Shown here in pieces: positions 24,635 to 43,958 of a DNA stretch of 64,000 nucleotides. Position numbers and translations under genes: made by a program. Numbering within the stretch: the first letter of the stretch is position 1; every line of letters starts with the position of its first letter. The notes beneath the pieces were generated by a model. The model was given only the letters and a program-made list of their open reading frames with translations, made no database searches and was not told the origin of the DNA. The stretch lies in the NCBI RefSeq assembly GCF_053078305.1, contig NZ_CP166879.1; one strand, written 5' to 3'.

Positions 24635-25006
24635 AGCTCCTCCTTAATGACAGGGTTGCGAAGCCCTGATTCTCTTCAGGGTGAATATTAAAGATAACAC
24701 AAACATCGCGTAACGATTTGATAACAACCCAAATTGATAAAAGAGGAGAAACCTTGTGGCAAAGCAAATGACAACCCCGCCGCAGCGGGGTCAAGGATCA
24801 GTGAGTAATGATCCAGAGGAGTTCGGCCCAGAAGAGCATCGACAGAGAAAATGCACCCATCCAGGACCAATATTTCATATTTGTGTTGATCATAGGCTAC
24901 ACCCTTAACGGTTATTACTTTGTGTTGAGGTAACTCAACCTGTTATTGCTGCGGTGTATTAAAAGCCCTTTAATTCATTAAAAATGGGTAATAAGAATGA
25001 TGATAA

Positions 25007-25195
25007 TTATTGTTTCGGCTGATCATCTTCAGCAAACAGTTCTATAAAGGCTTGCTGCTGCGATGTTAGTTGCCAGTCGTCTGGAATAACGACGGAACAT
25101 TCCCGCTTCGTTTCTGGTTCATTGTCACTATCCTGGCATAATGGTGACGACTCCAGTTGCTCCTGACCAACCATAGTTATCCCCACACTTTCCAA
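25007..25195 (-). CDS. yciX: Small protein YciX
   Basis: 62-aa acidic ORF between acnA and cysB, the position of ymiA-yciX in K-12. Confidence 0.45.
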   Translation of the reverse strand: MESVGITMVGQEQLESSPLCQDSDNEPETKRECSVVIPDDWQLTSQQQAFIELFAEDDQPKQ

Positions 25196-25305
25196 ATCAG
25201 CAGTGCGACAACCACCCAGAAAAGTGCAGAACCAAGAAAAACCGCCAGCCAGGCTTTACGTTTTAATTCAGGATCGCGGCGGGGTTCCTGATTTCCAGAA
25301 GGCAT
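25177..25305 (-). CDS. ymiA: Small membrane protein YmiA
   Basis: Hand-translated 42-aa ORF (MPSGNQEPRRDPELKRKAWLAVFLGSALFWVVVALLIWKVWG) with one TM helix; not in the >=60-aa ORF track; coordinates approximate. Confidence 0.4.
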   Translation of the reverse strand: MPSGNQEPRRDPELKRKAWLAVFLGSALFWVVVALLIWKVWG

Positions 25306-25589
25306 TGCTAACCTCATATAATCGCCATCACTTATCAGCAAGACGTTGAACGATTGGTGTAATTAATCATACGATGAGACAAATCCTAAAGAAACTTTAG
25401 TCAAAAATCCAGCGAATTTACGAATCGTCTCCAGTGAATAATTCAATCTTTTGACCTGAAATAGATATTTGAAAACTGGAATTTGCGAGGCGGGTAATTA
25501 GACACTACTTTACAGGTAATTTACCCTATAAATATGAGGGATAAAAATATTGTGCACGATATACAAATAAGTAACAAAAGAAAATATAT

Positions 25590-25621
25590 TTCGGCACCTT
25601 CGCTACAAAAAAGGTGCCGAA
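25590..25621 (-). terminator. cysB intrinsic terminator
   Basis: cggcacctt / aaggtgccg hairpin, followed on the minus strand by an A/T-rich tract, 15 bp after cysB stop. Confidence 0.5.
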
Positions 25622-25635
25622 AATAACGCAAGAAA

Positions 25636-26634
<999 letters not shown>

Positions 26635-26761
26635 TCAGAACATCGTTTTTTCGTCACACCTGGCGGGTGACTAATACGATTTAATAATAAAAAAGGTGCT
26701 AACTATAACCACTATATCATTTATAGCCTTAGTGTATAGGTATGAAGAAAAAATAATATGC

Positions 26762-26794
26762 AATAAAAAAGGGCCGCTTTCGCGACCCTTTGTT
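26762..26794 (-). terminator. topA intrinsic terminator
   Basis: aaagggtcgcgaaagcggccc hairpin followed by ttttttatt on the minus strand, ~25 bp after topA stop. Confidence 0.45.
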
Positions 26795-26819
26795 TATAAA
26801 AACCTGACAGAATTAAAGG

Positions 26820-29417
26820 TTATTTTTTCCCTTCAACCCATTTGCCATCAACATAAAATGCTGACCAGCCAGTCGCCTTTCCGTCTTTTTCCGAAGAGAC
26901 ATATTGCTGTTTGGTTTTACGGCTAAAGCGAACCATAGTCTTATTACCTTCCGGATCCTGTTGCGGCGCATCGGCCAGATAACGCAGTTTTTCCGGCAGA
27001 CGATCGCGGAAGCGATACAGCTCTTCCACCAGCGGCGCACGCGTTTCACGCGATTTCGGGAAGGTATTGGCCGCCAGGAACACACCGGCAGCACCGTCAC
27101 GCAGCACGAAATAGGCATCTGATTTTTCGCACGGCAGCTCCGGTAATGGTACCGGATCTTCTTTCGGTGGAGCCACTTCGCCGTTACGTAAAATCTTACG
27201 CGTGTTTTTACACTCTTCGTTGGTGCAGGCCATATATTTACCGAAACGCCCCATTTTCAGGTGCATTTCAGAACCACATTTTTCACACTCAACGATCGGG
27301 CCGTCATAACCTTTAATGCGGAATTCGCCCTCTTCGATCTCGTAACCGTCGCAGGTTGGGTTATTACCACAGACATGCAACTTACGTTTCGGATCGATGA
27401 GATAGCTGTCCATCGCCGTGCCGCATTTCGGGCAACGACGTTTTGCGCGCAGCGCGTTGGTTTCAGCGTCTTCGCCTTCCAGCACGTTCAGCACTTCGTT
27501 TTCCGGCACCAGGTTAATGGTTGTTTTGCAACGCTCTTTCGGCGGCAGCGCATAGCCAGAACAGCCAAGGAATACCCCGGTGCTCGCTGTGCGAATCCCC
27601 ATTTTGCGACCACAGGTCGGGCAGTCGATGCTGGTCAGAACCATCTGGTTCGGACGCATACCCCCCTCTTCCGGATCTTTTTCAGCTTTATCTAACTGCT
27701 GAGTGAAATCCGAGAAGAAGTGATCCAGTACAGCTTTCCACTCTGCTTCGTGATTTGCCACCTGGTCGAGGCTGTTTTCCATCTGCGCGGTGAAGTCGTA
27801 GTTCATTAACTCGCGGAAATTCTCTTCCAGGCGATCGGTGACGATTTCGCCCATTTTTTCCGCATAGAAACGACGGTTTTCTACACGCACATAGCCACGA
27901 TCCTGAATGGTCGAAATGATCGACGCATAGGTAGACGGACGACCGATACCGCGTTTTTCCAGTTCTTTAACCAGCGATGCTTCACTGAAACGGGCTGGCG
28001 GCTTGGTAAAGTGCTGGGCTGGTGTCAGTTCAACGAGCGTCAGAGCATCGCCTTTATCGACTGCCGGTAAGATACGATCTTCATCGCCTTTACGCAGTGC
28101 AGGCATCACTTTTGTCCAGCCATCAAAGCGCAAAATACGACCGCGTGCTTTCAGGCGGAAATCGCCCGCACCAACGGTCAGCGTCGTGGAGTCATATTTC
28201 GCTGGGGTCATCTGGCAAGCAACGAACTGACGCCAGATTAACTGGTACAGTTTCTGCGCATCTGCTTCCATATCCTTCAGAGATTCCGCCATCACATTGA
28301 CGTCAGAAGGGCGAATCGCTTCGTGCGCTTCCTGTGAGTTTTCTTTGCTGGCGTACTGATTCGGACTTTCCGGCAGATATTTCTTACCAAAATTATCGCT
28401 GATATAACCGCGAACCATATTTACCGCGTCCTGACTCAGGTTAGTGGAGTCGGTACGCATGTAAGTGATATAGCCTGCTTCATACAAACGCTGCGCCATC
28501 ATCATGGTTTTTTTCACGCCAAATCCAAGACGGGTGCTGGCAGCTTGTTGCAGCGTAGAGGTAATAAAAGGAGCGCCAGGTTTACTGGTTGTCGGTTTGT
28601 CTTCACGTTCCAGCACGCTGTAGCGCGCTTTTTCCAGCAGACTTACCGCAGCCTGAGTTTGTTCTTTGTTGACCGGACGGAACGGTTTGTCGTTCTGATG
28701 AGTCACCTGCAACGCCAACGCTTCACCAGATGGCGTGGTCGTGCTGGCATCGACTTCCCAGAACTCTTCCGGCACGAACGCTTTAATTTCACGCTCACGC
28801 TCGACCACCAGGCGGACTGCCACCGACTGCACACGACCGGCAGATAGACCACGAGCGATCTTTTTCCATAGCAGCGGCGAAACCATATACCCCACCACGC
28901 GGTCCATAAAGCGACGCGCCTGCTGGGCATTAACACGATCAATATTCAGCTCACCCGGTTTGTTAAATGCCTGGCGGATCGCGTTTTTAGTAATTTCGTT
29001 AAACACCACTCGGCTATAGCGCGCATCATCACCACCAATCACTTCCCGCAGGTGCCATGCAATGGCTTCCCCTTCGCGGTCAAGGTCGGTTGCGAGATAG
29101 ATGTGGTCGGCTTTTTCAGCCAGTTGTTTCAGTTCAGAGACGACCTTCTCTTTACCAGGCAACACTTCATAGTGCGCCTCCCAATTGTGCCACGGGTCAA
29201 CCCCCATACGGTTGACGAGAGCGCCACGTTCATCCTTTTTAGGCTTTTTAGCCGTCTTGGTGGAGGTAGAGTCGGCACTCTTTTTGGCAGCTGAGCCACT
29301 GGTCGGCAAATCGCGGATGTGACCGACGCTGGATTTCACCACGTAGTCACTACCCAGATACTTGTTGATCGTTTTGGCTTTTGCCGGGGACTCAACGATG
29401 ACAAGAGCTTTACCCAT
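26820..29417 (-). CDS. topA: DNA topoisomerase I
   Basis: ORF 26820..29459; likely start at [15 protein letters not shown] giving 865 aa; Toprim domain, three C4 zinc ribbons and C-terminal repeats. Confidence 0.95.
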
Positions 29418-29796
29418 ATTCACCTTACCTAATTTGATTCTTCCAGGAATGCGTCGCACGTTGATAAACCTTCCACTGGCAACGAGTTACCGATATGGAC
29501 TCGTTCTCTGCGGATATCAACCCCTTGTCGTGACTCTGTTCACGAAAATTCAGGTGACTGAGTTAACAGGTCTTGGCCTACAGGCGCTATAGCACGACGG
29601 AATTTTGGTCGAATGTCAAGCAAATCTATTGCCAGATTGACGAAAGCGTCACACTGTACCTGATAAAATCCGATACGCAACTTTATTAGCATGCAAAATC
29701 CAAAGTTGCCAGTAAGGCGCTCTTGCCACCAGCGTGGTATATTTGTCTGCAAGCCATGCCTGGCGTAGACTAATGTCCTTGTTTAAGGAGTAAATA

Positions 29797-30048
29797 ATGA
29801 ACAAAGAGACACAACCCATCGACCGCGAAACGCTGTTGAAAGAGGCCAACAAAATCATTCGTGAGCATGAGGATACGCTCGCAGGGATTGAAGCCACCGG
29901 CGTCACGCAGCGTAATGGCGTGCTGGTATTTACCGGCGACTACTTTTTAGATGAACAAGGATTGCCAACAGCCAAAAGCACCGCGGTGTTTAATATGTTC
30001 AAACACCTGGCCCATGTGCTTTCAGAAAAATATCACCTGGTTGATTAA
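29797..30048 (+). CDS. yciN: Small protein YciN
   Basis: 83 aa; K-12 synteny between topA and sohB. Confidence 0.8.
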
Positions 30049-30051
30049 AGC

Positions 30052-30086
30052 AAAACGCGAGGTCTTACCCTCGCGTTTGTCTTTTA
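30052..30086. terminator. Bidirectional terminator between yciN and sohB
   Basis: aaaacgcgagg-tcttac-cctcgcgttt hairpin followed by gtctttt. Confidence 0.5.
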
Positions 30087-31133
30087 CATCAATGGCTTTT
30101 GCCCCCGCTGCCACCAGCGTAACAACAATCGATCGGCGCTCTCTGCCGCGCTGCCGGTGAATCGGTCAATGAGTCGTTTACGCTGCATATAGCGTACATT
30201 GACCACTTCTCGGCCTTCCATCAGGCTAAGAATAACTTCATCACTGGTGTTGATTTCATCAACCAGGCCTTTCTCTACCGCCTGTTGTCCGTACCAGTGT
30301 TCACCCGTTGCCACCTGTTCAATATCCAGAGACGGACGCATACGCTTCACAAAATCTTTAAATAACTGATGCGTTTCGTTCAGCTCTTCGCGGAATTTCT
30401 CCCGCCCTTCTTCGGTATTTTCACCCAGCAAGGTCAGCGTACGCTTATACTGCCCGGCGGTGTGAAGTTCGATATCAATATCTTTGCTTTTCAGGAAGCG
30501 GTTAAAGTTGGGCATTTGCGCCACCACCCCAATGGAACCCACAATAGCAAACGGTGCGGAAACAATTTTGTCCGCCACACAGGCCATCATGTAACCGCCG
30601 CTGGCAGCGACTTTGTCTACCGTAACAGTTAAAGGAATGTTTTTATCGCGCAGACGCTGCAGCTGCGAAGCCGCCAACCCGTAACCATGCACCATGCCAC
30701 CAGGGCTTTCCAGACGGAGCACAACCTGATCCTGCGGTTTGAATGCTGCGAGTACAGCCGTTATCTCTTCACGTAGCGAGTTCACTTCATGGGCGTCCAT
30801 GCTGCCTTTAAAATCCAGCACCCAGACGCGGGGTTTACTGTCAGTTGCCACCTCTCCCAGTTTGGCTTTCGCTTTTGCTGCTTTCGCTTCTTGCTTATGC
30901 TTTTTCTTCTGCGCTTTGTGCCACTGTTTTTGCTGATGTGAGTCCATCAGCGCCGCGGCCAGTTCTTCTTTCATCTCCTTATACTGTTCGCTGAGATTGT
31001 TGACCCGTAACTCGCCACGCTGGCGTTTATTACGTTGAGCAACATTGACAATAATGGCGGCAATCGCCGCAATCGCTAGCACAACGGTAACGATTTTCGC
31101 CAAAAACAAACCATATTCAGACAACAATTCCAC
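30084..31133 (-). CDS. sohB: Inner-membrane S49 peptidase SohB
   Basis: 349 aa; N-terminal TM, lysine-rich linker and ClpP/SppA-type domain. Confidence 0.9.
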   Translation of the reverse strand: MELLSEYGLFLAKIVTVVLAIAAIAAIIVNVAQRNKRQRGELRVNNLSEQYKEMKEELAAALMDSHQQKQWHKAQKKKHKQEAKAAKAKAKLGEVATDSKPRVWVLDFKGSMDAHEVNSLREEITAVLAAFKPQDQVVLRLESPGGMVHGYGLAASQLQRLRDKNIPLTVTVDKVAASGGYMMACVADKIVSAPFAIVGSIGVVAQMPNFNRFLKSKDIDIELHTAGQYKRTLTLLGENTEEGREKFREELNETHQLFKDFVKRMRPSLDIEQVATGEHWYGQQAVEKGLVDEINTSDEVILSLMEGREVVNVRYMQRKRLIDRFTGSAAESADRLLLRWWQRGQKPLM

Positions 31134-31352
31134 GAGTCCCCACCTTGGTTAAACAACGCTTTGGCTCACAGTTTACAACAGGCATGTTAAGCCGTCTCGC
31201 AGAGATGTTATTGCAGCGAAAGTATGACAAAGTATCCATTTTGCGGTGTTATCGCCCCAGGCTGATTGAAATGCCCTTCTGTTTCAGGCATAAAGCCCCA
31301 AAGTCATAAAGTACACTGGCAGCGCGACAGACAACGTCGTTGAGGAGTAGCC

Positions 31353-32111
31353 ATGCATTACCAGCCAAAACAAGATTTACTCAATGATCGCATTATCCTG
31401 GTGACGGGAGCCAGTGATGGTATTGGTCGTGAAGCCGCGATGACGTATGCACGCTATGGTGCGACAGTGATTCTGTTGGGCCGTAATGAAGAAAAATTAC
31501 GTCAGGTAGCCAGCCACATAAACGAAGAAACTGGGCGTCAGCCACAGTGGTTTATTCTCGATTTGCTGACCTGCAGGTCCGAAGATTGCCAACAACTGGC
31601 ACAGCGCATTGCCGTTAATTATCCGCGTCTGGATGGTGTTTTGCATAATGCCGGATTGCTCGGCGATGTTTGCCCAATGAGCGAACAAAATCCACAGGTC
31701 TGGCAGGACGTCATACAGGTCAACGTTAATGCTACCTTTATGCTCACCCAGGCACTGCTTCCTTTATTACTCAAATCGGACGCCGGTTCACTGGTCTTTA
31801 CTTCATCAAGCGTTGGACGTCAGGGACGAGCCAACTGGGGCGCATATGCAGCGTCGAAATTTGCCACCGAAGGGATGATGCAGGTACTGGCCGATGAATA
31901 TCAGCAGCGCCTGCGCGTCAACTGCATTAACCCAGGCGGTACGCGCACCGCAATGCGTGCCAGTGCATTCCCGACCGAAGATCCACAGAAACTAAAAACA
32001 CCCGCTGATATCATGCCGCTCTACCTTTGGCTGATGGGCGATGACAGCCGCCGTAAAACCGGCATGACCTTTGACGCCCAACCGGGCCGTAAACCAGGAA
32101 TTTCCCAATGA
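31353..32111 (+). CDS. yciK: Short-chain dehydrogenase/reductase YciK
   Basis: 252 aa; Rossmann TGASDGIG and YxxxK catalytic motif. Confidence 0.85.
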   Translation: MHYQPKQDLLNDRIILVTGASDGIGREAAMTYARYGATVILLGRNEEKLRQVASHINEETGRQPQWFILDLLTCRSEDCQQLAQRIAVNYPRLDGVLHNAGLLGDVCPMSEQNPQVWQDVIQVNVNATFMLTQALLPLLLKSDAGSLVFTSSSVGRQGRANWGAYAASKFATEGMMQVLADEYQQRLRVNCINPGGTRTAMRASAFPTEDPQKLKTPADIMPLYLWLMGDDSRRKTGMTFDAQPGRKPGISQ

Positions 32112-32698
32112 GTGATGAACGCTACCAACAGCGTCAGCAACGAGTGAAAGAGAAAGTAGATGCTCGTGTGGCCCAGGCCCAGGATGAACGCGGTATTATC
32201 ATCGTCTTTACCGGCAATGGAAAAGGCAAAACCACCGCGGCATTTGGTACGGCAACACGCGCAGTTGGTCACGGAAAAAAAGTGGGCGTCGTGCAGTTTA
32301 TTAAAGGCACCTGGCCTAATGGCGAACGCAATCTGCTGGAGCCACATGGCGTTGAGTTTCAGGTGATGGCAACGGGCTTTACCTGGGATACACAAAACCG
32401 CGAGTCTGATACCGCCGCCTGCCGCGAAGTCTGGCAACATGCAAAGCGGATGCTTGCTGATTCCTCACTGGATATGGTTTTGCTCGATGAGCTGACATAT
32501 ATGGTGGCGTATGACTATTTGCCACTGGAAGAAGTGTTGCAGGCGTTAAATGAACGTCCACATCAACAGACGGTGATTATCACGGGTCGAGGCTGTCATC
32601 GGGATATTCTTGAACTGGCGGATACGGTGAGTGAGTTGCGCCCCATCAAACATGCGTTTGATGCCGGTGTAAAAGCGCAGATAGGGATCGATTATTAA
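32108..32698 (+). CDS. btuR: Cob(I)yrinic acid a,c-diamide adenosyltransferase
   Basis: 196 aa; P-loop GNGKGKTTAA; overlaps yciK stop by 4 bp. Confidence 0.9.
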   Translation: MSDERYQQRQQRVKEKVDARVAQAQDERGIIIVFTGNGKGKTTAAFGTATRAVGHGKKVGVVQFIKGTWPNGERNLLEPHGVEFQVMATGFTWDTQNRESDTAACREVWQHAKRMLADSSLDMVLLDELTYMVAYDYLPLEEVLQALNERPHQQTVIITGRGCHRDILELADTVSELRPIKHAFDAGVKAQIGIDY

Positions 32699-32705
32699 TC
32701 TGTAA

Positions 32706-32732
32706 AAATGCCGGATATGACGTCCGGCATAC
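32706..32732. terminator. Bidirectional hairpin between btuR and rluB
   Basis: atgccgga-tatgacg-tccggcat inverted repeat between convergent stops. Confidence 0.45.
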
Positions 32733-32737
32733 TTTGA

Positions 32738-33610
32738 TTAACCGTTATTACGTCCGCCAGAACGACGACCGCCGCTCACCTGACTGTGACGTTTCACCGC
32801 ACGACGAATCTGATTCGCCTTCATGCGACGACGGTCTTTTTCTACAGCGACTTTAGAGCTGGTTTCTGGCGGTAGCTCCACCAGTTCGCGCAGATAGTTA
32901 GTCTGGGCGAGGTCCAGCTCCGTCCAGCCACCGCGTGGCAGACCTTTTGGCAGTGGGATATCACCGTAACGAACACGGATCAGGCGGCTCACCTGCACAC
33001 CAACCGCTTCCCACAGACGACGAACTTCACGGTTACGGCCTTCGGTCAGAGTCACGTTGTACCACTGGTTGATCCCTTCGCCGCCGCTGAACTTGATGGT
33101 TTTAAAAGCTGCCGGACCATCTTCCAACTGCACGCCACGACTCAAATCACGCAGTTTCGCGTCGTCAACCTGACCAAATACACGCACGGCATATTCACGT
33201 TCAACTTCACGGCTTGGGTGCATTAAACGGTTTGCCAGTTCACCATCGGTGGTGAACAGCAGCAGACCACAGGTATTAACGTCCAAGCGACCCACGGCAA
33301 TCCAGCGTGCGCCACGCAGTTTTGGCAGACGGTCAAACACCGTTGGACGTCCTTCCGGATCGTTACGGGTACACAACTCACCTTCCGGTTTGTAATAGGC
33401 CAGAACGCGACAAATTTGTTCAGCGGACTCACGTACCGAAATCAGGTGACCATCGATACGGATTTTCAATCCAGGGGTAACTTCAACGCGATCGCCGAGT
33501 TTAGCAATTTTGCCATCAACACTCACACGACCGGCTTCAATAATAGATTCGATTTCACGGCGAGAACCGTGGCCGGCACGCGCCAGCACTTTCTGTAGCT
33601 TTTCGCTCAT
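32738..33610 (-). CDS. rluB: 23S rRNA pseudouridine(2605) synthase RluB
   Basis: 290 aa; S4 domain, RsuA/RluB catalytic motif ([17 protein letters not shown]), arginine/glycine-rich C-tail. Confidence 0.9.
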
Positions 33611-33822
33611 AGAGCTTCCTTTTGGTGTCGCCTTCCCAGGCGTCTGATATGCTTTTGTGCAACAGTGAGTCAGAACTTACATCTGACTCACTGATAGTAA
33701 AGTCTGTTTGAACTCTTCAGGCCTTAAGTAAACGACTCGACGTTTTAACTGGCCTGGCTTTGAGGCGCAACATACTACACTATCTTTATGGTTAAAGCTT
33801 GTTTCGATTATCATCAGCTTAA

Positions 33823-34473
33823 TTACCAGCCACCACCGCCTCCGCCACCCGCGCCGCCGCCAGCACCACCACCGGAATAACTTCGCCCCAACAAACTGGT
33901 ATTGGCCCCCAGACTCAGGTGCATCTGTAATGAGAACAAAACGCCACTACGGGCAATTTCCGGGGCGCTAACAGCCGCTGTGAGTGATGGGGTGATACGT
34001 GCTACCCATTCTCTTCCAAGGTTTGCTGAGACTGCCCAACCTGGCAACGCGTAATCCAGTTTCCGTGTTTCCCCTTTCCGCCGCCGCCCACTGTGTGTTG
34101 CCGCCTCTTTACGCGCAAGATAGTTAACGATAGCTTCACCGTGGGCATAACGTTGCTGCCCAGTTTGGGTAAACTTTGGCAGAAAAATATACCCCATACC
34201 AGTGAGATAACCGGTCAGGAAAACAGCGCTAAAATAACCCGCTGGCATATACCAGTAAAAGAATACATCTCCGACATTGATATAGAGAGAATAAAAGGCC
34301 ACGCCTGAACAAATCAGCGGTAAAAACAAAGTGATGATTACACGATTAACGCAAGGCTTGTCATCATCGCGGGCAAACAAAAGCTCAAGGGAGCAAAATA
34401 AAAAAGGAAGAAGCCAGCAGATCATAATAAACATATCGCCCATGTAACCAGGTAAATCATTTGATACCGACAA
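33823..34473 (-). pseudogene. yciQ: 3' remnant of membrane protein gene yciQ, truncated by prophage insertion
   Basis: 216-aa ORF with TM helices and glycine-rich C-tail in the position of yciQ (upstream of rluB in K-12) but far shorter than a full-length gene; its 5' side runs into prophage-end sequence; ORF start is a TTG, not a real start. Confidence 0.5.
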
Positions 34474-34620
34474 GGGTTTTAGTGAAAGGAGGTGAAATCA
34501 CCTGTAAGATACTGAAATAAAACAGGTGATCGATGATTCTGGAGGTTGTTTAGTTTTGATACTGATTAAATAAAATCCGGTATAAAATTAAGGTATCGGC
34601 AACAAATTTGATACTGCACA
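34458..34620. repeat. Putative prophage left-end (attL) transposase-binding sites
   Basis: TTGATAC(C/T)G-like motifs at ~34461, ~34557 and ~34608 plus related copies (agatactga ~34507; inverted gccgatacc ~34592); about 96 and 51 bp apart, similar to my recollection of Mu L1/L2/L3 spacing. Confidence 0.4.
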
Positions 34621-34747
34621 TACTGCTTATGGACGTTTTTAAAAGTACTTAAAATGTCTTTTATGCTAAAAAGTTTATATCAATATCGATCTGGTCACAA
34701 ATCAAGTTGAAAGTGCTCGCTAAGTGCATAGCCTGGGCTTCATGGGG

Positions 34748-35266
34748 TTACGCTTTGGCTTCTTTATGGGTTAAATTGAAATGATGCTCCTTGGTTTCAT
34801 CTCCCTCGAAAATCTCTCTAACCTTTTGATCTGATAAATTATTAAGGCTCAATGCTGCCAGGCGTCGAATACCTGTTAAAGCGATCAACTCTTGATTCTC
34901 TTGATTGCAGAATTCCAGCAATTTTTCTACCCCTTTCCTTCTCAAGGTGTAAATAACTAATTCTTGCTCTTCTTGGCTCAAAGTGTCGATGAGTTCGAGC
35001 AACTCGCTATTGCCACCGTTCTTTTGAGGGGGCTGGTGTTTTATTTCTGCACTACCTGTAATGATGGAAACAACATGTGCAGGTAAGTCGCTTAAACGGT
35101 AGGCAAATGCTCTCCCTCTGATACCAGGTGTAGTTACCGAACGTTTTTCCCATCCTTCATTTTTTGCTCGTTTATGAAGCCCAGCCAGAGATGAAGGAAG
35201 ACCTCCAACCCCCAACAAGTCACTGGCAAGGATCCATTCTTGGTCAAGGATCATATCAAACTCCAT
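34748..35266 (-). CDS. Mu c-type prophage repressor
   Basis: 172 aa, transcribed leftward ~280 bp from the left end; N-terminal motif LPSSLAGLHKRAK shared with the transposase N-terminus (LPSSLAGLHKKAK). Confidence 0.7.
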   Translation of the reverse strand: MEFDMILDQEWILASDLLGVGGLPSSLAGLHKRAKNEGWEKRSVTTPGIRGRAFAYRLSDLPAHVVSIITGSAEIKHQPPQKNGGNSELLELIDTLSQEEQELVIYTLRRKGVEKLLEFCNQENQELIALTGIRRLAALSLNNLSDQKVREIFEGDETKEHHFNLTHKEAKA

Positions 35267-35483
35267 TTGATATTAACTTTTGTTTATATCTTTTATGCGG
35301 TTTATTTCAAAAATAACTCAATAAAAAACAAATAGATACAGAGCAAATTTAAAAATTTGAAATTAACCAGTTGATATTTACTAAGTTAATATCTAACATA
35401 TCAAACATACACTAGTGAGTAACTCAATAGAGTAGCACACATGAGTAATAAAGTTTGCCATAGAAAGTACACAGGGGGCCATT
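35267..35483. promoter_or_regulatory. Early regulatory region (divergent repressor/early promoters and operators)
   Basis: 217-bp AT-rich intergenic region between divergent repressor and ner, with ttgatat-type direct and inverted repeats. Confidence 0.5.
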
Positions 35484-35729
35484 GTGAGTCTTATTGAAGA
35501 TTGGTCTTCCGCCGATATAAAGGCAGCCTTAGAAAAACGCGATACCAATTTGTCACGTTTATCAAGGGAAAATAATTTGCAGCCTAGGACTTTGGGTAAT
35601 GCTTTGCGAGTTCCCTACCCTAAAGGTGAAAAGATAATTGCTAGGGCTATAGGTGTAGAGCCACAGGTTATTTGGCCTACTAGATATGAACGACGTGCGC
35701 GGAGGAAATATGTGGGTTGCAATGACTGA
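35484..35729 (+). CDS. ner: Ner/Nlp-family DNA-binding protein
   Basis: 81 aa; resembles Mu Ner / E. coli Nlp (...LSRLSRENNLQPRTLGNALRVPYPKGEKIIARAIGVEPQVIWPTRY). Confidence 0.75.
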   Translation: MSLIEDWSSADIKAALEKRDTNLSRLSRENNLQPRTLGNALRVPYPKGEKIIARAIGVEPQVIWPTRYERRARRKYVGCND

Positions 35730-37794
35730 ATTGATTTCATTCAGTGACCTACCTAGTTCTTTGGCAGGTCTGCACAAAAAAGCAAAGAGGGAAGCGTGGA
35801 AAACGCGGCTAAAACCAGGGGTAAAAGGGAAAGTTTTAGAGTGTGAAATAGGAGCTTTGCCTTTAACTGTTCAGCAGGCAGTACGCGAACGCCATGCCCT
35901 GCAACTGATGACGCAAAAAGCCGATGAATCACCGGCTCCGGTGGTGACAAAGGCCAGACGCTCACCTGCCGTGGTTGATGCGGTGGAGGCATATCGCGGA
36001 TCACCCCAACTGATGGTCGAACGCCTCAATGCCCTGACTGAAAATCAGCGCCAGGTGGCTGATGCACGAATCGCGATCGTCAGCGAAGTTCTGAAAGTCG
36101 CGCAACAACCTGGTTTCAGCTGTGCGAAGGCTATCCGGTTTATCGTTGACAACCTGGCACGTTCGCAGTTGGACGAGCGCATTGTGGCAATGGTTGAGAC
36201 GGCGAACGCCAAAAAGGGAAACAGCCGCGCGTTAAGTGAAATCACGCTGAAACGCTGGATTGCGGCCTTTAACAAGGCGCAGAACGCCGCTGAACGCCTG
36301 CTTTTACTGGCACCGGGTAAGCGCCAGGAAATAAAAGCCGAAGATATTAACTGGCTGCCCGAATTTCTGGCGCAGTATCGCCAGTCAAACGGCCGACCAA
36401 TGACCGAGGCTTACGAGGATTTTGTCGCTGAATGGCAGCACCGGCACGCCGATGAGCCTTATATGCTCGATATCATGCCGTCTTATGACACCATTCGCCG
36501 CGCAATGAAGAAACTGCCGGAAGTGGTGAAACAAAAAGGCCGGGTGACCGGCAGTGAATACCGCCAGCTTGAGGGATTCACGCGCCGCGACTGGTCAAAA
36601 ATGCCGGTGAATTATGTCTGGATTGGTGACGGTCACGGCATGAAGCTGAAATGCGCACACCCGGTTCACGGTCGGCCATTTGCACCGGAAGTGACCTTTG
36701 TTATCGACGGTGGCACGCGCTTTGTGGTGGGCTGGAGCCTTGACCTGGCTGAAAATGTTTTCGCCGTAGCCGGTGCCATACAGCACGGCATTCGCCATCA
36801 CGGCAAACCGTTTCTGTATTACTCGGATAACGGCTCCGGGGAAACCGCCGACATCCTGGATAAGGAGGTTGTGGGGATACTGCCGCGACTGGGGATTAAT
36901 CACCCGACCGGGATTGCCGGTAATCCGCAGGGACGAGGCATTATCGAACGGCTTAACCGCACATTACCGATGCGCATAGCCCGTAAATACCGCACCTATT
37001 TCGGGAAAGGTGCAGATCGCGAGACGTTACGCAAAACCAACCGCGATTTACGCTCGGCATTTACTGCCCTGCAACAGGGCAAACGGCTGAACGCCCGGCA
37101 GCAGTCAGCGATGCGTGATTTACCGTCCTGGTCTGAACTGATTGATGCCATTCGTGACGGTGTTGAGTGGTACAACAACCGGCCGCACGATGAATTACCG
37201 GTGAAGCCGAACGGCAAGCATTACAGCCCGGCGGAGTTCAGAAAAAAACGCCTGGCGGAAGAGGACACGGAAATTGAATGGCTGTCCGATGTTGAGCTGC
37301 GGGATATGTTCCGGCCGATGGTGGAACGCCCTGTAAGACGCTGTGAAATACGCTGGCTGAATAATATTTACTACGCGCCCGAGCTGCGTGACGAGCATGG
37401 TCGTAAGGTGCTTATCAGCTATGACATTCATGATGCCGAACGAATTACCGTACGTCGCCTGGATGGCAGCGTGATTTGCGAGGCGGTATGGGACGGTAAT
37501 AAACGCGAAGCCTTCCCGGTTAGCGCGGAATACTACAAACAGCAGCAACGCCTTAAAGGCATGCGTAAACGCGCAGAGGAAAAAATCCGTGATGCCGAGG
37601 ATGAGGTTGTCAACGTGCTGGAGCACAAGCCGCAGGAGCCCTGGCTGGAAAACATATACCGCCCTGTGGGTAATACGGTGACCGTTCAGCAACCGGTCGC
37701 TGACGATGAACCTGATGAAGAATACGAGCGTAATTTCCAGCGGGGATTGCAGTTGCTGGAAGCGAAATTAAAAGAAAATGACCCGCTGGCCTGA
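35710..37794 (+). CDS. Mu-type DDE transposase (MuA-like)
   Basis: ORF 35686..37794; N-terminal repressor-like DNA-binding domain; DDE core (WIGDGHG, YYSDNGSGE); start codon ambiguous. Confidence 0.9.
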   Translation: MWVAMTELISFSDLPSSLAGLHKKAKREAWKTRLKPGVKGKVLECEIGALPLTVQQAVRERHALQLMTQKADESPAPVVTKARRSPAVVDAVEAYRGSPQLMVERLNALTENQRQVADARIAIVSEVLKVAQQPGFSCAKAIRFIVDNLARSQLDERIVAMVETANAKKGNSRALSEITLKRWIAAFNKAQNAAERLLLLAPGKRQEIKAEDINWLPEFLAQYRQSNGRPMTEAYEDFVAEWQHRHADEPYMLDIMPSYDTIRRAMKKLPEVVKQKGRVTGSEYRQLEGFTRRDWSKMPVNYVWIGDGHGMKLKCAHPVHGRPFAPEVTFVIDGGTRFVVGWSLDLAENVFAVAGAIQHGIRHHGKPFLYYSDNGSGETADILDKEVVGILPRLGINHPTGIAGNPQGRGIIERLNRTLPMRIARKYRTYFGKGADRETLRKTNRDLRSAFTALQQGKRLNARQQSAMRDLPSWSELIDAIRDGVEWYNNRPHDELPVKPNGKHYSPAEFRKKRLAEEDTEIEWLSDVELRDMFRPMVERPVRRCEIRWLNNIYYAPELRDEHGRKVLISYDIHDAERITVRRLDGSVICEAVWDGNKREAFPVSAEYYKQQQRLKGMRKRAEEKIRDAEDEVVNVLEHKPQEPWLENIYRPVGNTVTVQQPVADDEPDEEYERNFQRGLQLLEAKLKENDPLA

Positions 37795-37865
37795 AATAAA
37801 AAAATAACCCGAGCGGCGACTCAGGTTATTTGATTAAACAAGGTATCAAATGAAAGGTTAATAAT

Positions 37866-38798
37866 ATGACTGATATTAACGATGTAATCAAGACCATTGA
37901 TGAACTTATTGATGGCGGCGTACTGACGCAGTATGCCATCGCCAGAGAGGCGGGAATTTCCGACGGCACATTATCGGCTTTCCGTAAGGGAAAATATAAA
38001 GGCGATAACGCTGCTGTGGCTGCTTCCCTGCGTTCCTGGTATGAGAACTGGAATAAACAAAGCGCACTGCCGGAACCGCCGCAGTTTGTGGAAACGCAGA
38101 CAGTCCAGGAGCTGCGCACACTGTTTCAGGCGGTTCGTCTGATGGGCTGTATTAACGTTATTGTGGGCGTACCGGGTGTGGGTAAAACGGCCACTGCCCG
38201 TAATTACTGCCAGGAGCAACCAAACACCTGGATGATCACCCTGTCACCCGCGCACTCCAGCGTCACGGAGTGTCTGCTGGAGCTGGCCGATGCGCTGGGG
38301 ATTGATTACACCCGCGCGAACAAAGGGGCATTATCCCGCGCCATCCGCCGTCGCCTGATGGGAACGCGTGGACTGGTGATTGTGGATGAGGCGGATCATC
38401 TTGGTATTGACGGTCTGGAGCAACTCCGGGCAATTCAGGACGCCACGGGGATCGGGATGGTGCTTATTGGTAACCCGCGCGGATTGTTTAAAGGTGGACG
38501 CCGCGCCTTTGATGATTTATCGCGCCTGTTCAGCCGTCTTGCCCGTACAAAACAACTTCGCAAGGCCAAAAAGGCGGATGTGCTGGCCATTGCCAGTGCG
38601 TGGGGGATCAGTGGTGAGGCCGAGCTGGCCGTCATGCAGGCTATCGCTGAAAAGCCGGGAGCGTTACGCGTTCTGACACATACGCTTAACCAGGCGTGGC
38701 TCACCGCCAGCGGTGAAGGCGCGGCGCTGACAGAAAAACATATTAATGCGGCCTTTAAAGAGGTTTATACCAACCCTGAATTACTCTCACAGGTGTGA
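37866..38798 (+). CDS. Mu B-like AAA+ ATPase (target DNA activator)
   Basis: 310 aa; N-terminal HTH, Walker A GVPGVGKT, Walker B VIVDEADHL. Confidence 0.85.
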   Translation: MTDINDVIKTIDELIDGGVLTQYAIAREAGISDGTLSAFRKGKYKGDNAAVAASLRSWYENWNKQSALPEPPQFVETQTVQELRTLFQAVRLMGCINVIVGVPGVGKTATARNYCQEQPNTWMITLSPAHSSVTECLLELADALGIDYTRANKGALSRAIRRRLMGTRGLVIVDEADHLGIDGLEQLRAIQDATGIGMVLIGNPRGLFKGGRRAFDDLSRLFSRLARTKQLRKAKKADVLAIASAWGISGEAELAVMQAIAEKPGALRVLTHTLNQAWLTASGEGAALTEKHINAAFKEVYTNPELLSQV

Positions 38799-39022
38799 TT
38801 ATGGCGGTATTTAATATTCCTGATATTTACGGACGCTTTTACCTGGTTAATTTCGATAACGTGAAGGTGATTTCACTGGCCGAAAATAAAGAATGTGGCG
38901 ATTTACTTTTTGAATTTAATGACCGCACACGAATGGTGATATCTGCCGGACTTGATCGCGAAGGTGCGACAGACGTTTACAGCGGAATATGCCGTTCTGT
39001 TGGTGCGAAACAAGTCAGCTAA
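38795..39022 (+). CDS. Hypothetical protein (prophage accessory region)
   Basis: 75-aa ORF overlapping B stop by 4 bp; no recognisable motif. Confidence 0.45.
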   Translation: MIMAVFNIPDIYGRFYLVNFDNVKVISLAENKECGDLLFEFNDRTRMVISAGLDREGATDVYSGICRSVGAKQVS

Positions 39023-39289
39023 ATGAGGTGTTATATGAATATGCAATCCTGCGGTAACAAAATGAATTTATTCGACTCCCTGAACAGCGCGCGCCGTCTG
39101 ACCGAACTTGCCGGTGCGGTACTGGAACGCAGTAAGCGCTATCCGCAACGTTTTGCACTGAAAACCACGCCGCCGGTAGGCAACGTGCAGGGAACCGGTG
39201 AAATTGAAATCACCATACAGACCAACGGCCTGCGCCGCCGTGTGAAGGCCACCCGCATCAGCGGCTGCACGGTTTACTGGGAGGTGTGA
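39023..39289 (+). CDS. Hypothetical protein (prophage accessory region)
   Basis: 88-aa ORF, tightly packed in the same operon; start may be an internal Met. Confidence 0.45.
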   Translation: MRCYMNMQSCGNKMNLFDSLNSARRLTELAGAVLERSKRYPQRFALKTTPPVGNVQGTGEIEITIQTNGLRRRVKATRISGCTVYWEV

Positions 39290-39366
39290 GGTGAAAAAAA
39301 AATCTCATTGCATGGGCGTGGTCGAGTGGTCTTATTGAGTTTGGTTACGTCCTGCCGGAAGGTGCA

Positions 39367-39573
39367 TTGCCGATAGTTGCCGGAAAGCCTGCCACGGTAC
39401 GGCATGTGATTGAGGTTATGGCGCGTCATGGACGTGATGAACAGGAGCAGTTACTGGTTCCGGGGATACCGGAAGCGGTGACGGAGGAAGAAGCCTTTAA
39501 TGCCATGATTCGGTTCTGCCGTGAGGTCAGACGCCGGGTCAGTTATCCAAACAGAACGAGGACCAGAGGATGA
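39367..39573 (+). CDS. Hypothetical small acidic protein
   Basis: 68-aa ORF; possible upstream GTG extension near 39292; stop overlaps next start. Confidence 0.4.
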   Translation: MPIVAGKPATVRHVIEVMARHGRDEQEQLLVPGIPEAVTEEEAFNAMIRFCREVRRRVSYPNRTRTRG

Positions 39574-39842
39574 GTAAAGTCGTACGCATTATTTTCGAAT
39601 ACAAGGAGCACGTTATCCATAAAAACGCGGATGGAACAGTGCGCATGGGGATAAGTCTGGACATACGTTCAACCGGGATAAAGCAGAAAGGTGATGGACC
39701 TGCCATGATTTTTGGGGTGGTTATGCTCGCGGAAAGCAGAGACTTTGCTGAACTTGTGGCAATGAAAGCCAGTGCGCTCATGAAAGATATGAGCATGCGT
39801 TCCGGGGTTATTAAAGGTAATGAATTTAATCAGCAGGGGTAA
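39570..39842 (+). CDS. Hypothetical protein, paralogue A of a tandem pair
   Basis: 90 aa, MSKVVRIIFEYKEHVIHKNADGTV...; N-terminus resembles the next gene. Confidence 0.5.
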   Translation: MSKVVRIIFEYKEHVIHKNADGTVRMGISLDIRSTGIKQKGDGPAMIFGVVMLAESRDFAELVAMKASALMKDMSMRSGVIKGNEFNQQG

Positions 39843-39846
39843 TTCC

Positions 39847-40140
39847 ATGAGCAAAGTACGCGTTATTTTTGAATTTAAGCATGTTTCGCATGACGAAAAA
39901 CCGGCAGGCAATGACTGTGTTGAAGTGCATGAAAAGATTGGTGTGGATGTAAAAACAGAACGTGATACGAATAACAGGCCGACGTCACTCTGTGACGTTT
40001 ATGTAAGTATTCTCCAGTATCACAGTCCTGAAATTATTCAGTTTCTCTCAGCGGAATTTCAGGCATCTGTACAGGCTTTTGGGGCGGATGCCATCATTAA
40101 ACGCCACCGCGTGCATAAAGCATCAGGCACACTGCAATAA
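39847..40140 (+). CDS. Hypothetical protein, paralogue B of a tandem pair
   Basis: ORF 39820..40140; likely start MSKVRVIFEFKHVSHDEKPAGND... Confidence 0.5.
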   Translation: MSKVRVIFEFKHVSHDEKPAGNDCVEVHEKIGVDVKTERDTNNRPTSLCDVYVSILQYHSPEIIQFLSAEFQASVQAFGADAIIKRHRVHKASGTLQ

Positions 40141-40151
40141 GGAAAAACAAA

Positions 40152-40682
40152 ATGGCAAAACGCGTTACAAAATTAAAGGCCGCAGCAGAGGCGGCACCGC
40201 AGACCCGTGAAGAGGTCAGCCGCGATATCCGCACCCTGGGCGATATTCAGCGAGAGGCGCTGCGCCTGGAAACAGCGATGAATGATGAAGTGGCAGAAAT
40301 CACCGCCCGTTATACGCCGCAGATTGAAAACCTTAAAAAAGAAATCAAAGTGCTTTTTAAGGGGATTCAGGACTGGTGCAAAACCAACCGTGATGAGCTG
40401 ACGAACGGCGGCAAAACCAAAACTGCCAATCTGACCACCGGAACAGTGTCATGGCGGCTGGGAAATCCATCATGCAGCGTCAGCCGTGATGTGGAAGGTG
40501 TGATTGAAATGCTGCGCCGTATGGGGCTTGAGCGATTCATCCGCACGAAAGAGGAAGTGAACAAGGAAGCGGTCCTGGCGGAGCCGGATGCAGTGAAAGG
40601 CATTGCCGGTATTAAGGTGAATAAAGGCGCTGAAAGTTTTTATGTCGAGCCTTTTGAACAGGACGCCGGACTGAATAAATAA
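40152..40682 (+). CDS. gam: Host-nuclease inhibitor Gam (Mu Gam family, DNA-end binding)
   Basis: 176 aa; size, position after B and sequence features consistent with Mu Gam. Confidence 0.75.
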   Translation: MAKRVTKLKAAAEAAPQTREEVSRDIRTLGDIQREALRLETAMNDEVAEITARYTPQIENLKKEIKVLFKGIQDWCKTNRDELTNGGKTKTANLTTGTVSWRLGNPSCSVSRDVEGVIEMLRRMGLERFIRTKEEVNKEAVLAEPDAVKGIAGIKVNKGAESFYVEPFEQDAGLNK

Positions 40683-40779
40683 CACCGCATTAAATCTTTA
40701 AATATCACATCGTTTTAAGTATGGCGCTCGCGTCAGGGGACTGTCTGCGCCTGTAAACTGAAAATAAGGAACAGGATAT

Positions 40780-41322
40780 ATGGCATATTTTTATTTCAAA
40801 TTAGACCGTGTGCAGACAAATAAATATTTCACCAAATATCAACAGACTGTTTTACCGCTACGCAACAGTATTCTTCGGGCATTACTGAAAAATACAGGCG
40901 CTGCCGGATTGCGCTTAAAGCCGTTTGCCATGGACGTAATCAGTGAGTTTTATTTTTCTGGTACTCTGCCTGCGGGCTGGCGTAAGCGCGATGATGTGGC
41001 TTTTATCGGGGACGGACCGTGCTTTATTGCCAGACCTGATGAGTCATGCCCTGAAGGACCGGCGATTGCCGCAATGATTGAAGCCGCTGAACGCGAGTTA
41101 AGAAAGCGTCCTGATTTCCTTGTCTGGCTCTGTGAAAAGCTGGGGGTAATGAGAATCCCCTCCATGTTTAACATGGACTCCTGGTGGACCCCGTCGCTCT
41201 CCCGTGATGCCCTGTGCGTGGTGTTTAAAGTAGGCGCTTATGGCAGGGAAATAAAAGGGGGTATTCCTGAAGAATGCCAGGAGATTAAACATTCTGAATA
41301 TGTGGCGCTGACGGAGGAATAA
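40780..41322 (+). CDS. Hypothetical protein
   Basis: 180-aa ORF, no recognisable motif. Confidence 0.45.
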   Translation: MAYFYFKLDRVQTNKYFTKYQQTVLPLRNSILRALLKNTGAAGLRLKPFAMDVISEFYFSGTLPAGWRKRDDVAFIGDGPCFIARPDESCPEGPAIAAMIEAAERELRKRPDFLVWLCEKLGVMRIPSMFNMDSWWTPSLSRDALCVVFKVGAYGREIKGGIPEECQEIKHSEYVALTEE

Positions 41323-41325
41323 TTC

Positions 41326-41859
41326 ATGATTGATGCAAAAGTGCTTGAAGGGGTTAAAAACTGGCTGAGTATTTACGGGCGTCTGACCTGCGGAGTTCTG
41401 GCTGAAAAAATGAATATGCCGCCATCCTCGATGGTTTATTTTCTGCGTGATGCGGTTGATGCCGGGGTGCTGACGGAATGTAACGGTTTTTATGATATTC
41501 CGCGTCCCCGCCCGGTGCAGCCGGTTCGTCGCAAATGCAGCCAGGAGTCTGCGGCTGATGATGTTCAGTGGTGCAGCTTCAGAAAATCCCTGCCGTGGAT
41601 TGAGGGGCATGATATTCCGTCGATGGCGTGGGAATTTGCTCAGGGCATACTGACCTGTGAAACCGTTTATGTGGTGGCTGAAGTTGATGAGCAGGCCATG
41701 AAAGAAGGCGTGCCCCAGTTTGTGATGGCGTATATCGACATACGCCTGGGTGTCATTATCTGCGGTTTAAGCGGCTGGAATATCACCTCGCGCGTTCTGC
41801 GTTACCTGATTGTTGACCGGACGGCCGCGCCTGCCGGGATATCTGCGGAGGTGGCGTAA
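41326..41859 (+). CDS. Hypothetical protein (possible N-terminal winged helix)
   Basis: 177-aa ORF, 3 bp after previous stop. Confidence 0.45.
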   Translation: MIDAKVLEGVKNWLSIYGRLTCGVLAEKMNMPPSSMVYFLRDAVDAGVLTECNGFYDIPRPRPVQPVRRKCSQESAADDVQWCSFRKSLPWIEGHDIPSMAWEFAQGILTCETVYVVAEVDEQAMKEGVPQFVMAYIDIRLGVIICGLSGWNITSRVLRYLIVDRTAAPAGISAEVA

Positions 41860-42374
41860 TGTTCTTTAAAACATCAAACCCTTCCGCGCTGGCCGCGTGG
41901 CAAAAATATCAGCAGGACTGCCAGAAAGTTAAGGATGAGGCAAAACGCCTTGAGGCCGTGCTGAATGTTGCGTGCCGGTCGGTATTTGTATCCGGTATCA
42001 GTGGCTTTTGTTTTAAAGGGCTGCGCTTTATGGATGACAAATATCCTTTTCATCGCGACTTATGGCGAAAACCGACTGCGTCGAATGGCTGGAGCTGCAC
42101 ACCGCGCACATCACGTATTCCCAAAGCCCTGCGCGTTGCCTCTGACGAACTTAACAGTCTGTGGCGTGAATATTCGCCCGTCACGTATGCCAGAACCGAT
42201 GCACTGTTGTTCTGGCTGGGTATTGATTTCTCGGCAATCATGTTTGGCCCTGTGAAGTGGTTCTGCGTTGACGATGTGATTTACCTTGAGTGCGGCGTAA
42301 AACCCGCAAATCAGAAAATGACCGAAATTCTGTCTGATGAGTTTTATGCTGCTGAAAAGCGAGTCAGGGGGTGA
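41859..42374 (+). CDS. Hypothetical protein
   Basis: 171-aa ORF, start overlaps previous stop. Confidence 0.45.
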   Translation: MFFKTSNPSALAAWQKYQQDCQKVKDEAKRLEAVLNVACRSVFVSGISGFCFKGLRFMDDKYPFHRDLWRKPTASNGWSCTPRTSRIPKALRVASDELNSLWREYSPVTYARTDALLFWLGIDFSAIMFGPVKWFCVDDVIYLECGVKPANQKMTEILSDEFYAAEKRVRG

Positions 42375-42377
42375 TGT

Positions 42378-42929
42378 ATGATGATTTTACAACCCATGGG
42401 GCGAAAAGGTCAGGCACCTGCTCATGTCCGTGCGTGGACACCTGAAGAAGATGCGCTGCTGATTGCGCTTTATCCATCCACCCCGGTTAAGGATATTGCT
42501 GTCAGGGTAAAAAGAAGTTTCTGGGGTGTACATAACCGGATTGTTTTATTACGCGGTACTTACCCGGAGTTGCTCAAATGCAAACGTCCAAGATTTAAAC
42601 ATGATGAAGATAAATTTATCCGAAAAAATGCCAGAACGATGACCGGTAAGCAAATAGGAGAATATCTGGGGCGAGACCGGGATTCTGTCCACAATCGGGC
42701 GCGATATATTGGCGTAAGCATGAAAAAATACGGAGAATTGCTGCCCTTCACCCGTATACCTGACGATGATGTTCATCTTATTCGTGAATTACGGGATGCT
42801 GAATCACCACGACGTCTTACCTTCCGGGAAATAGGCGAGAAATTTGAATTATCCGAGAGTACGGTGAATTTTATTTATCACCATCGCCGGACTGCCGAGG
42901 ACGCTGTATTACGGGAGTTAACGCCATGA
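42378..42929 (+). CDS. Hypothetical DNA-binding protein with three tandem ~45-aa Myb/HTH-like repeats
   Basis: 183 aa; repeats begin WTPEEDALLIALY..., KHDEDKFIRKNAR..., IPDDDVHLIRELRD..., each ending in an S-x-x-N-R/H-R-R-like motif; AT-rich codon usage. Confidence 0.5.
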   Translation: MMILQPMGRKGQAPAHVRAWTPEEDALLIALYPSTPVKDIAVRVKRSFWGVHNRIVLLRGTYPELLKCKRPRFKHDEDKFIRKNARTMTGKQIGEYLGRDRDSVHNRARYIGVSMKKYGELLPFTRIPDDDVHLIRELRDAESPRRLTFREIGEKFELSESTVNFIYHHRRTAEDAVLRELTP

Positions 42930-43111
42930 TAAAGAGACTTGTATTTTTCGCAATTTTCGTTCCGGTGTTGGGGGTTGGTTTTATATTTGCGATTACAGGA
43001 AACCTGTCCATGATGCCAGATATTTGGTTCTTTATCAGGATGTCGCTCTTCCTGTTTATTATGAATCTTCTTATCGACATATATATCCGTATTACTGGAA
43101 AACATAAATGA
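42926..43111 (+). CDS. Small hydrophobic membrane protein (2 predicted TM)
   Basis: 61 aa; MIKRLVFFAIFVPVLGVGFIFAITG... and FFIRMSLFLFIMNLLIDIYI; very AT-rich. Confidence 0.45.
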   Translation: MIKRLVFFAIFVPVLGVGFIFAITGNLSMMPDIWFFIRMSLFLFIMNLLIDIYIRITGKHK

Positions 43112-43482
43112 GAAAAATCACGTCCTTGTCAGAGTTACAGGAGATGAATATGAGTATTGAATTAAGATCGTCTTATGAGTATCGCAAATTTCTTATCGCC
43201 GGAGGCATGAAACCGGAAGATGTGGAAAAAATCGTTTCTTTTATGGATAAGGAATGTGACAAGCGGGATGTGTCAGAAATTATTATGGATGACATGATTC
43301 TGGATTCAGTCGTGGCGTTAAGTCCGTTATGGATTGTGCATTCTCTTGCGGAAATTGCCAAAGGCACCGATAAACAGGCAGCTGTTGCTGCCCTTCAGAC
43401 GCTTAATGAAATGCGTATATCTCCACGCCCGACATTAATACAGATGATTTTGTCCAGTATGGAGGATAAAGCAAATGAATAG
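43108..43482 (+). CDS. Hypothetical cytoplasmic protein
   Basis: 124-aa ORF, start overlaps previous stop; possible internal start at MSIELRS. Confidence 0.45.
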   Translation: MRKITSLSELQEMNMSIELRSSYEYRKFLIAGGMKPEDVEKIVSFMDKECDKRDVSEIIMDDMILDSVVALSPLWIVHSLAEIAKGTDKQAAVAALQTLNEMRISPRPTLIQMILSSMEDKANE

Positions 43483-43672
43483 TCTACCCGCTGGATGGGC
43501 GCGCCCTCTGATGGCTAAGAAGCATCATTTTTTTAAAACTGGCGATAATATCAGTATATGTAGGCGGTGGTTATATCTGGCTCATAATCGCGAGCCGGAT
43601 ACATTTGAAAGCCCTGATGACTGTGCCGAATGTCGCAGAAGACTGAATAAGGAGAAAGATAATGGACAGTAG
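43475..43672 (+). CDS. Hypothetical small protein with Cys/His cluster
   Basis: 65 aa; C...H...CAEC spacing suggests a possible small zinc-binding knuckle. Confidence 0.4.
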   Translation: MNSLPAGWARPLMAKKHHFFKTGDNISICRRWLYLAHNREPDTFESPDDCAECRRRLNKEKDNGQ

Positions 43673-43958
43673 TTCGCAGTTGTTCTGGTGTTTATATATC
43701 ACATCGTTTTTCGGTGCATTCGTCATTACACGATGGCTGTGCCGGAAAGTTATCAGTATTTTTCATAAAAAATACCTGATTGGGCTGGCGGCGACTTCTC
43801 TGATTAATGCACTTGCCAGATATCATAAGGGGGAATACTACTCAAGAATAAAAACTGATGATGGTTTTAATATTTTTGTGATTCCTCCGGAGTATCGGGT
43901 TCAGCTCGATCGGGAAAGTAATATCTATCATATCAGCAGGAGTGTTGATACAGCATGA
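43662..43958 (+). CDS. Small membrane protein (N-terminal TM helix)
   Basis: 98 aa; LFWCLYITSFFGAFVITRWL hydrophobic segment. Confidence 0.45.
   Translation: MDSSSQLFWCLYITSFFGAFVITRWLCRKVISIFHKKYLIGLAATSLINALARYHKGEYYSRIKTDDGFNIFVIPPEYRVQLDRESNIYHISRSVDTA

Follow-up and report, generated by a model that had tools for sequence, protein, structure and literature searches.

A Mu-like prophage of the Sp18 group inserted in yciQ, with the ends of its relatives

The ends of phage Mu carry repeats laid out as L1...L2-L3 and R1-R2-R3. Mu makes 5-bp and phage B3 6-bp duplications of the target, and TG-CA termini are conserved in all Mu-like and B3-like phages described so far; the TA-TA ends of certain Leptospira prophages were treated by their authors as unusual (PMC8705779). 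Sp18, a prophage of E. coli O157:H7 Sakai, is predicted to be intact and is packaged but not circularised (PMC2669165). Sp18-like phages occupy variable loci, with one to three per STEC genome (PMC10132054, PMC7430833). In the literature that we searched (most subscription journals fell outside the search) we found no statement of the duplication length of Sp18-like phages.

We analysed a 64-kb stretch of contig NZ_CP166879.1 (assembly GCF_053078305.1), called the window below and used for all coordinates unless another locus is named, in which host sequence gives way to phage sequence inside yciQ. The insertion is an ordinary strain-specific prophage of the already known Sp18-like group. Very probably, a Mu-type temperate phage of this group entered the non-essential E. 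coli gene yciQ at codon 426 through DDE transposition, between 34442 and 34443, and is now a resident prophage. Directly seen are the left junction to the base, a full Mu-type left end, and apparently intact early and late genes up to the window edge. Features are listed in Table 1.

Table 1. Features of the host flank and prophage, in window coordinates
Feature	Position	Strand	Basis
rluB, last intact host gene ahead of the insertion	32738..33610	-	ORF; rluB in the colinear PS10-3 locus; product matches Pfam S4 and PseudoU_synth_2
yciQ (DUF2207) 3′ remnant	33823..34442	-	Last two bases of codon 426 plus codons 427-631; alignment to intact PS10-3 yciQ
CCCA, predicted left copy of the 4-bp duplication	34439..34442	.	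The four host bases that precede the phage end; 4-bp length from relatives
Junction-made ATG, start of the annotated 206-aa remnant protein	34441..34443	-	Phage terminal T gives the A, host bases give TG
Prophage left end (attL)	34443..34747	+	Terminus TGTAACCAGG; TTTGATACYG in three direct copies (34460, 34555, 34607) as candidates for transposase sites L1, L2 and L3
Leftward repressor, 172-aa ORF (168 aa as called in the draft and relatives)	34748-35266	-	phrog_7148 'transcriptional repressor', 9e-47; weak Pfam HTH_Tnp_Mu_1 match
Divergent regulatory region between repressor and ner	35267..35483	.	AT-rich; direct and inverted TTGATAT-type repeats D2, D7, D8, I2, I4, I5
ner-like early regulator	35484..35729	+	phrog_769, 7e-31; 53% identical to Mu Ner; NCBIfam SfsB/Ner family match
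MuA-type DDE transposase, 702-aa ORF	35686..37794	+	phrog_310 transposase, 2e-206; Pfam HTH_Tnp_Mu_1 (PF02316) and Mu-transpos_C (PF09299)
MuB-type AAA+ transposition ATPase, directly downstream of the transposase gene	37866..38798	+	phrog_296, 3e-109; Pfam Phage-MuB_C (PF09077)
Remaining prophage inside the window, ending at the window edge	38795..64000	+	Colinear with Sp18 at 96-99%; Pfam families; exact proteins in the collection

Host flank and left junction

Window positions 28700-34442 align with positions 1-5743 of a locus of the prophage-free E. coli strain PS10-3 (L001) as a single ungapped block at 99.58% identity. The block is colinear with the window and contains topA, yciN, sohB, yciK, cobO, rluB and the 3′ part of yciQ. 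The following positions of that locus, 5744-9743, which contain the 5′ part of yciQ, yciO, rnm, trpL and trpE, found no match across the 64-kb window. Further out, 5414 complete genomes are colinear with window 12000-34442. The breakpoint falls exactly at 34442/34443, where the intact host (PS10-3) reads ATATCGCCCA/CCAGACTC and the window reads ATATCGCCCA/TGTAACCAGG. The phage left end, TGTAACCAGG..., thus begins at 34443, and prophage sequence continues from there to the window end. The junction at yciQ was spanned by none of the 5,426 complete E. coli genomes searched. On the host side, the sole Rfam family over its gathering score in the window is the STnc180 sRNA (RF02079, 196.6 bits; 24764-24966, minus strand).

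A sequence-only reading of the window had described a host gene order unbroken up to rluB, an interrupted yciQ beside it, the absence of yciO and the trp operon from the window, and a junction within 34,440-34,500. The PS10-3 block and the 5414 colinear genomes confirm the gene order, the alignment to intact yciQ stops at 34442, and the part of L001 with yciO, trpL and trpE is unmatched in the window; the actual junction lies at the low edge of the bracket. It was the alignment to a prophage-free E. coli, proposed in that reading as a check and run here against PS10-3, that fixed the breakpoint.

The sequence from 34443 matches 247 E. coli genomes, 12 of which match the entire 4.36-kb query from its first base, each adjoining a different host gene (hyfF, yahO, ypdA, torZ and an IS66 tnpA among them). 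The junction is no chance effect: the phage left end begins at exactly the same base at different host genes in these 12 full-length matches, and three of the six TTTGATAC 8-mers of the 64-kb window are found in 34460-34614. In other E. coli genomes this left end occupies more than 12 unrelated chromosomal sites, and the insertion sites of relatives include sorM, hyfF, yahO, ttdB, an IS66 tnpA, cas3 and ypdA, as for a phage without an attachment site.

Intact YciQ has 631 residues, and yciQ is inactivated by the insertion, which leaves a 206-aa C-terminal remnant ORF with an ATG made by the junction. The remnant differs from PS10-3 by one residue (H for Q). The 216-aa C-terminal yciQ fragment of the earlier reading exists as an ORF (33823-34473, TTG start), but only 206 codons and 2 nt of it are yciQ, the first ~10 codons being phage end sequence; that reading had also carried the frame through the TTG to a stop at about 34498, and the stop is indeed at 34498-34500. 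The 206-aa product is identical to the hypothetical protein KFD74342.1 of the strain's draft genome, GCA_000736735.1, where contig JPQG01000006.1, identical at 100% to window 23823-44443, encodes it. For annotation, then, a strain-specific Mu-like prophage disrupts yciQ, a DUF2207 membrane protein gene of unknown function, and gives rise to a 206-aa "hypothetical protein" that is spurious. Transcription of the repressor gene may read through into the yciQ remnant and rluB. YciQ has a C-terminal tail rich in glycine (SGGGAGGGAGGGGGGGW), whose coding sequence (33823-33880, minus strand) is GC-rich and repeat-like.

Left end, early genes and late region

All three left-end repeats fall within the first 175 bp of the prophage, at offsets 18, 113 and 165, and the right end of relatives carries three inverted copies at offsets 19, 41 and 76. 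At each end 17 nt separate the tip from the first repeat, with the right end read in relatives and its tip taken as ...GCGCTATA. The spacing (left here, right in relatives) mirrors the L1...L2-L3 and R1-R2-R3 arrangement of Mu, and we infer that the transposase binds these repeats.

The repressor stop codon is 305 bp inside the prophage end, and the c gene of Mu ends 338 bp inside; the sequence-only reading had put the distance at about 280 bp, a figure that needs correcting, and had likened the geometry to that of Mu, which holds. Residues 11-65 of the repressor and residues 10-62 of the transposase of this same phage are 42% identical over 55 residues, and the repressor N-terminus is 35% identical to that of Mu c. 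GC content is 0.37 across 34443-35483, and the TTGATAT-type repeats between repressor and ner are candidate operators together with a candidate enhancer. The transposase likely starts at 35710, giving 694 aa. Its identity to MuA is 21-32% (a weak but significant BLASTP match), and that of the B protein to MuB is 49% across 300 aa. By phrog, Pfam, NCBIfam and BLASTP assignments, the genes for repressor, ner, A and B are arranged as in Mu, as expected from the leftward repressor and Mu-type early region that had been read from the sequence.

Beyond B, the early and middle genes include kil, gam, gemA and mor-type genes, and the late genes comprise those for lysis, terminase, portal, F, protease, major head, sheath, tube, tape measure, DNA circulation and the first baseplate protein. 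Every visible prophage gene is full length up to the window edge. The prophages of relatives measure 38,755-39,232 bp, so the right end of the yciQ copy should lie about 9-10 kb past the window end, and the part visible here amounts to 29.6 kb of roughly 39 kb. For window 39100-64000, 226 records cover at least 80% at ~97-98% identity, among them Sp18 of O157:H7 Sakai ("Mu-like phage").

Some details of this region were recorded separately. An 82-aa ORF (47605-47853, plus strand) between the gp27-like and terminase genes matches phrog_30922 (unknown function, 3e-47); it is absent from Sp18, in which the alignment has a gap at 47590-47759, and could represent a moron or an accessory gene. At 62835-63968 (plus strand), the first baseplate protein (gp44/P-like) has 377 aa, with a DSR insertion near its C-terminus relative to the 374-aa Sp18 protein, and the 377-aa form is widespread (208 blocks of the protein collection). 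In relatives, RefSeq annotates a minus-strand "tRNA-OTHER" lying between F and G; it was rejected for this prophage, since ARAGORN called no tRNA in the window; the positions compared were 52415-52525 here and 19221-19300 in a relative (L003).

Right end, target duplication and mode of insertion

In 18 independent insertions of relatives the right end is ...AAATCGCCGCGCTATA (tip ...GCGCTATA), followed by unrelated sequence. Because its final A is constant in all 18, this A is part of the element and the tip is TA, not CA. The left tip here is TG (34443-34444). All eight of the fully flanked relatives have a flanking direct repeat of exactly 4 bp (TAAA, ATAA, TTTT, CGAG, AGAG, TCTG, ATCA, GATC), and a fifth base matches only where it is A, in four of the eight. 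Empty sites rebuilt with a single 4-bp copy were 100% identical to intact hyfF and sorM across 300 gapless nt; the fifth base disagrees at both of these sites, which therefore discriminate 4 from 5 bp. The TG...CA tips and 5-bp duplication anticipated in the sequence-only reading are accordingly wrong for this phage group.

Alternative placements of the ends were rejected. A right end at ...CTAT, followed by a 5-bp duplication whose first base is A, does not fit, since left-flank base -5 is T, T, T or C in four of the eight copies, and neither does an element starting at G with a duplication ending in T, since the fifth right-flank base is variable. The annotated Sp18 feature of Sakai (1972..40730 of L002) compares with ends found at 1971..40725; its left border is one base off and its right border includes four flanking bases.

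It is quite possible, and we propose it tentatively, that Sp18-group phages, this one included, transpose with a 4-bp stagger and asymmetric TG...TA tips, as a natural exception to the Mu/B3 rule; no paper in the literature searched describes such a feature. In this widespread STEC phage group, prophage borders should be called as TGTAACC...GCGCTATA between 4-bp flanks instead of TG...CA between 5-bp ones; the Mu rule, applied to the Sp18 group, would wrongly suggest that there is no duplication. If the 4-bp stagger and TA tip are truly unreported, they would offer a natural variant for studying target spacing in the Mu-type transpososome and its tolerance of a non-CA cleavage site.

By analogy with the relatives, the right junction at yciQ is predicted to read ...GCGCTATA/CCCA/CCAGACTC or, with a longer flank, ...GCGCTATA/CCCA/CCAGACTCATTCC. 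In terms of gene content, a simple insertion predicts a right end ...AAATCGCCGCGCTATA and then CCCACCAGACTCATTCC, 1.28 kb of 5′ yciQ, yciO and rnm; the same prediction can be given as ...GGTATCAAAAAAATCGCCGCGCTATA and then CCCACCAGACTCATTCCTGCC, 1,276 nt of 5′ yciQ, yciO, rnm and trpL. The YciQ N-terminal fusion proteins predicted from the PS10-3 allele under 4-bp and 5-bp models had no exact match in the protein collection, a search for homologues of the predicted fusion gave nothing but clusters at 90% identity, and the predicted right junction had no match among the viral contigs scanned.

We infer a simple insertion rather than one rearranged later on its right side. In the rearranged case the left junction would be genuine, but recombination between two Sp18-like copies, or an adjacent deletion or inversion of the Mu type, would have parted the 3′ from the 5′ portion of yciQ, leaving the right end beside unrelated DNA with no matching duplication. 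The right side lies beyond the window, and STEC genomes carry one to three such phages (PMC10132054). Several late proteins (window 47853-62848) have paired GenBank accessions on a single 5,941,328-bp contig (for example YBJ00791/YBJ05723 and YBJ00802/YBJ05734), and the exact tape-measure protein is unique to a 5.94-Mb contig. Such pairs may mean two prophage copies in the chromosome, which would favour rearrangement, but they may equally be two records of one genome deposited twice. The DNA-circulation, baseplate and sheath proteins led to prophages of other strains and to one further contig of the draft. The draft assembly also breaks within the prophage: contig 6 (JPQG01000006.1) extends to about window 46676 and so covers 12 kb of the prophage, and the 22.7-kb contig JPQG01000013.1 stops inside the tape-measure gene and is without an intact tape-measure call. 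The latter contig, however, shows 2 mismatches and 10 gap openings against the 15 kb of window 46946-61912, which points to indel sequencing errors in the 2014 draft, and such errors explain the fragmentation without repeats. Given moreover that all eight of the relatives are simple insertions with matching 4-bp repeats, we consider rearrangement improbable.

Still less probable, to the point of being very unlikely, is a decayed, immobile remnant with yciQ as a fossil insertion site: although only part of the prophage is visible, all visible genes are full length and colinear with Sp18 and relatives, the left-end repeats are intact, absence of the insertion from the 5,426 complete genomes argues for a recent event, and Sp18 itself is packaged into particles (PMC2669165).

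For the simple transpositional insertion that we prefer, mechanistic details are carried over from Mu by analogy, the transposase being only distantly similar to MuA as given above. An infecting or replicating phage genome would have been inserted by the MuA-type transposase, which would bind the TTTGATAC repeats at both ends and nick the 3′ tips, while the MuB-like ATPase would present yciQ DNA as the target. The 3′ tips would be joined to target positions staggered by 4 bp, and gap repair would then duplicate CCCA. The repressor, which shares a DNA-binding domain with the transposase, would keep the early promoter shut, and probably the enhancer of transposition too, allowing stable lysogeny. 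After derepression, the phage would be expected to replicate by transposition and to be packaged by the headful, carrying flanking host DNA.

Comparison with Sp18, Mu and other transposable phages

Sp18 shares with this prophage its termini (TGTAACCAGG... at the left and, in relatives, ...GCGCTATA at the right), its gene order and its variable host sites, the insertion site being sorM in Sakai and yciQ here. Nucleotide identity is 96-99% from the transposase gene to the baseplate genes and ~97% in the late region, which, with the early gene order, bears out the Mu-type transposable prophage that had been recognised from the sequence. Besides the insertion site, the 82-aa ORF and small indels, the two differ in the immunity region. 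At the nucleotide level nothing in Sp18 matches window 34531-35871, a stretch that comprises repressor and ner together with the 5′ part of the transposase gene, and the Sp18 repressor and ner are only 38% identical to their counterparts here, whereas A is 92.6% and B 99.4% identical. The same immunity module was found in 12 other complete genomes. The module has probably been swapped relative to Sp18, and because it differs from that of Sp18 the yciQ prophage is probably a heteroimmune variant, as judged from these comparisons.

Phage Mu (Muvirus mu) has the same layout: attL repeats, a leftward repressor, ner, A, B, the kil/gam/gemA/mor genes, then lysis, head and contractile tail genes. Both Mu and the relatives of this prophage have an invertible tail-fibre segment, gin and com/mom, and, as in Mu, the repressor and transposase have an N-terminal DNA-binding domain in common. 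The right tip of Mu, TGAAGCGGCGCA, can be aligned with the TATAGCGCGGCGA of the Sp18 group. In nucleotide alignment, by contrast, only 5% of the DNA aligns with Mu, at 72% identity, and Mu has a CA right tip and a 5-bp duplication where the relatives of this prophage have TA and 4 bp.

The Leptospira TA-TA prophages and B3 likewise depart from the Mu pattern, the former in their TA-TA tips in place of TG...CA and both in having 6-bp instead of 5-bp duplications (PMC8705779). Their proteins are unrelated, however, with transposases of the B3/Tn552 type, and TA at both ends with 6-bp duplications contrasts with the TA at the right end only and the 4-bp duplications of the Sp18 group.

In sum, the features of a Mu-type transposable phage are present: a MuA-type transposase, a MuB gene downstream, divergent repressor and ner genes, end repeats and many unrelated insertion sites. 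Those of Muvirus in the strict sense, namely a 5-bp duplication and TG...CA tips (both judged on relatives) and genome-wide similarity to Mu, are not. The element belongs to the Sp18-like group, outside the phage Mu species, and is Mu-like in its working without two of the classical sequence signatures of Mu.
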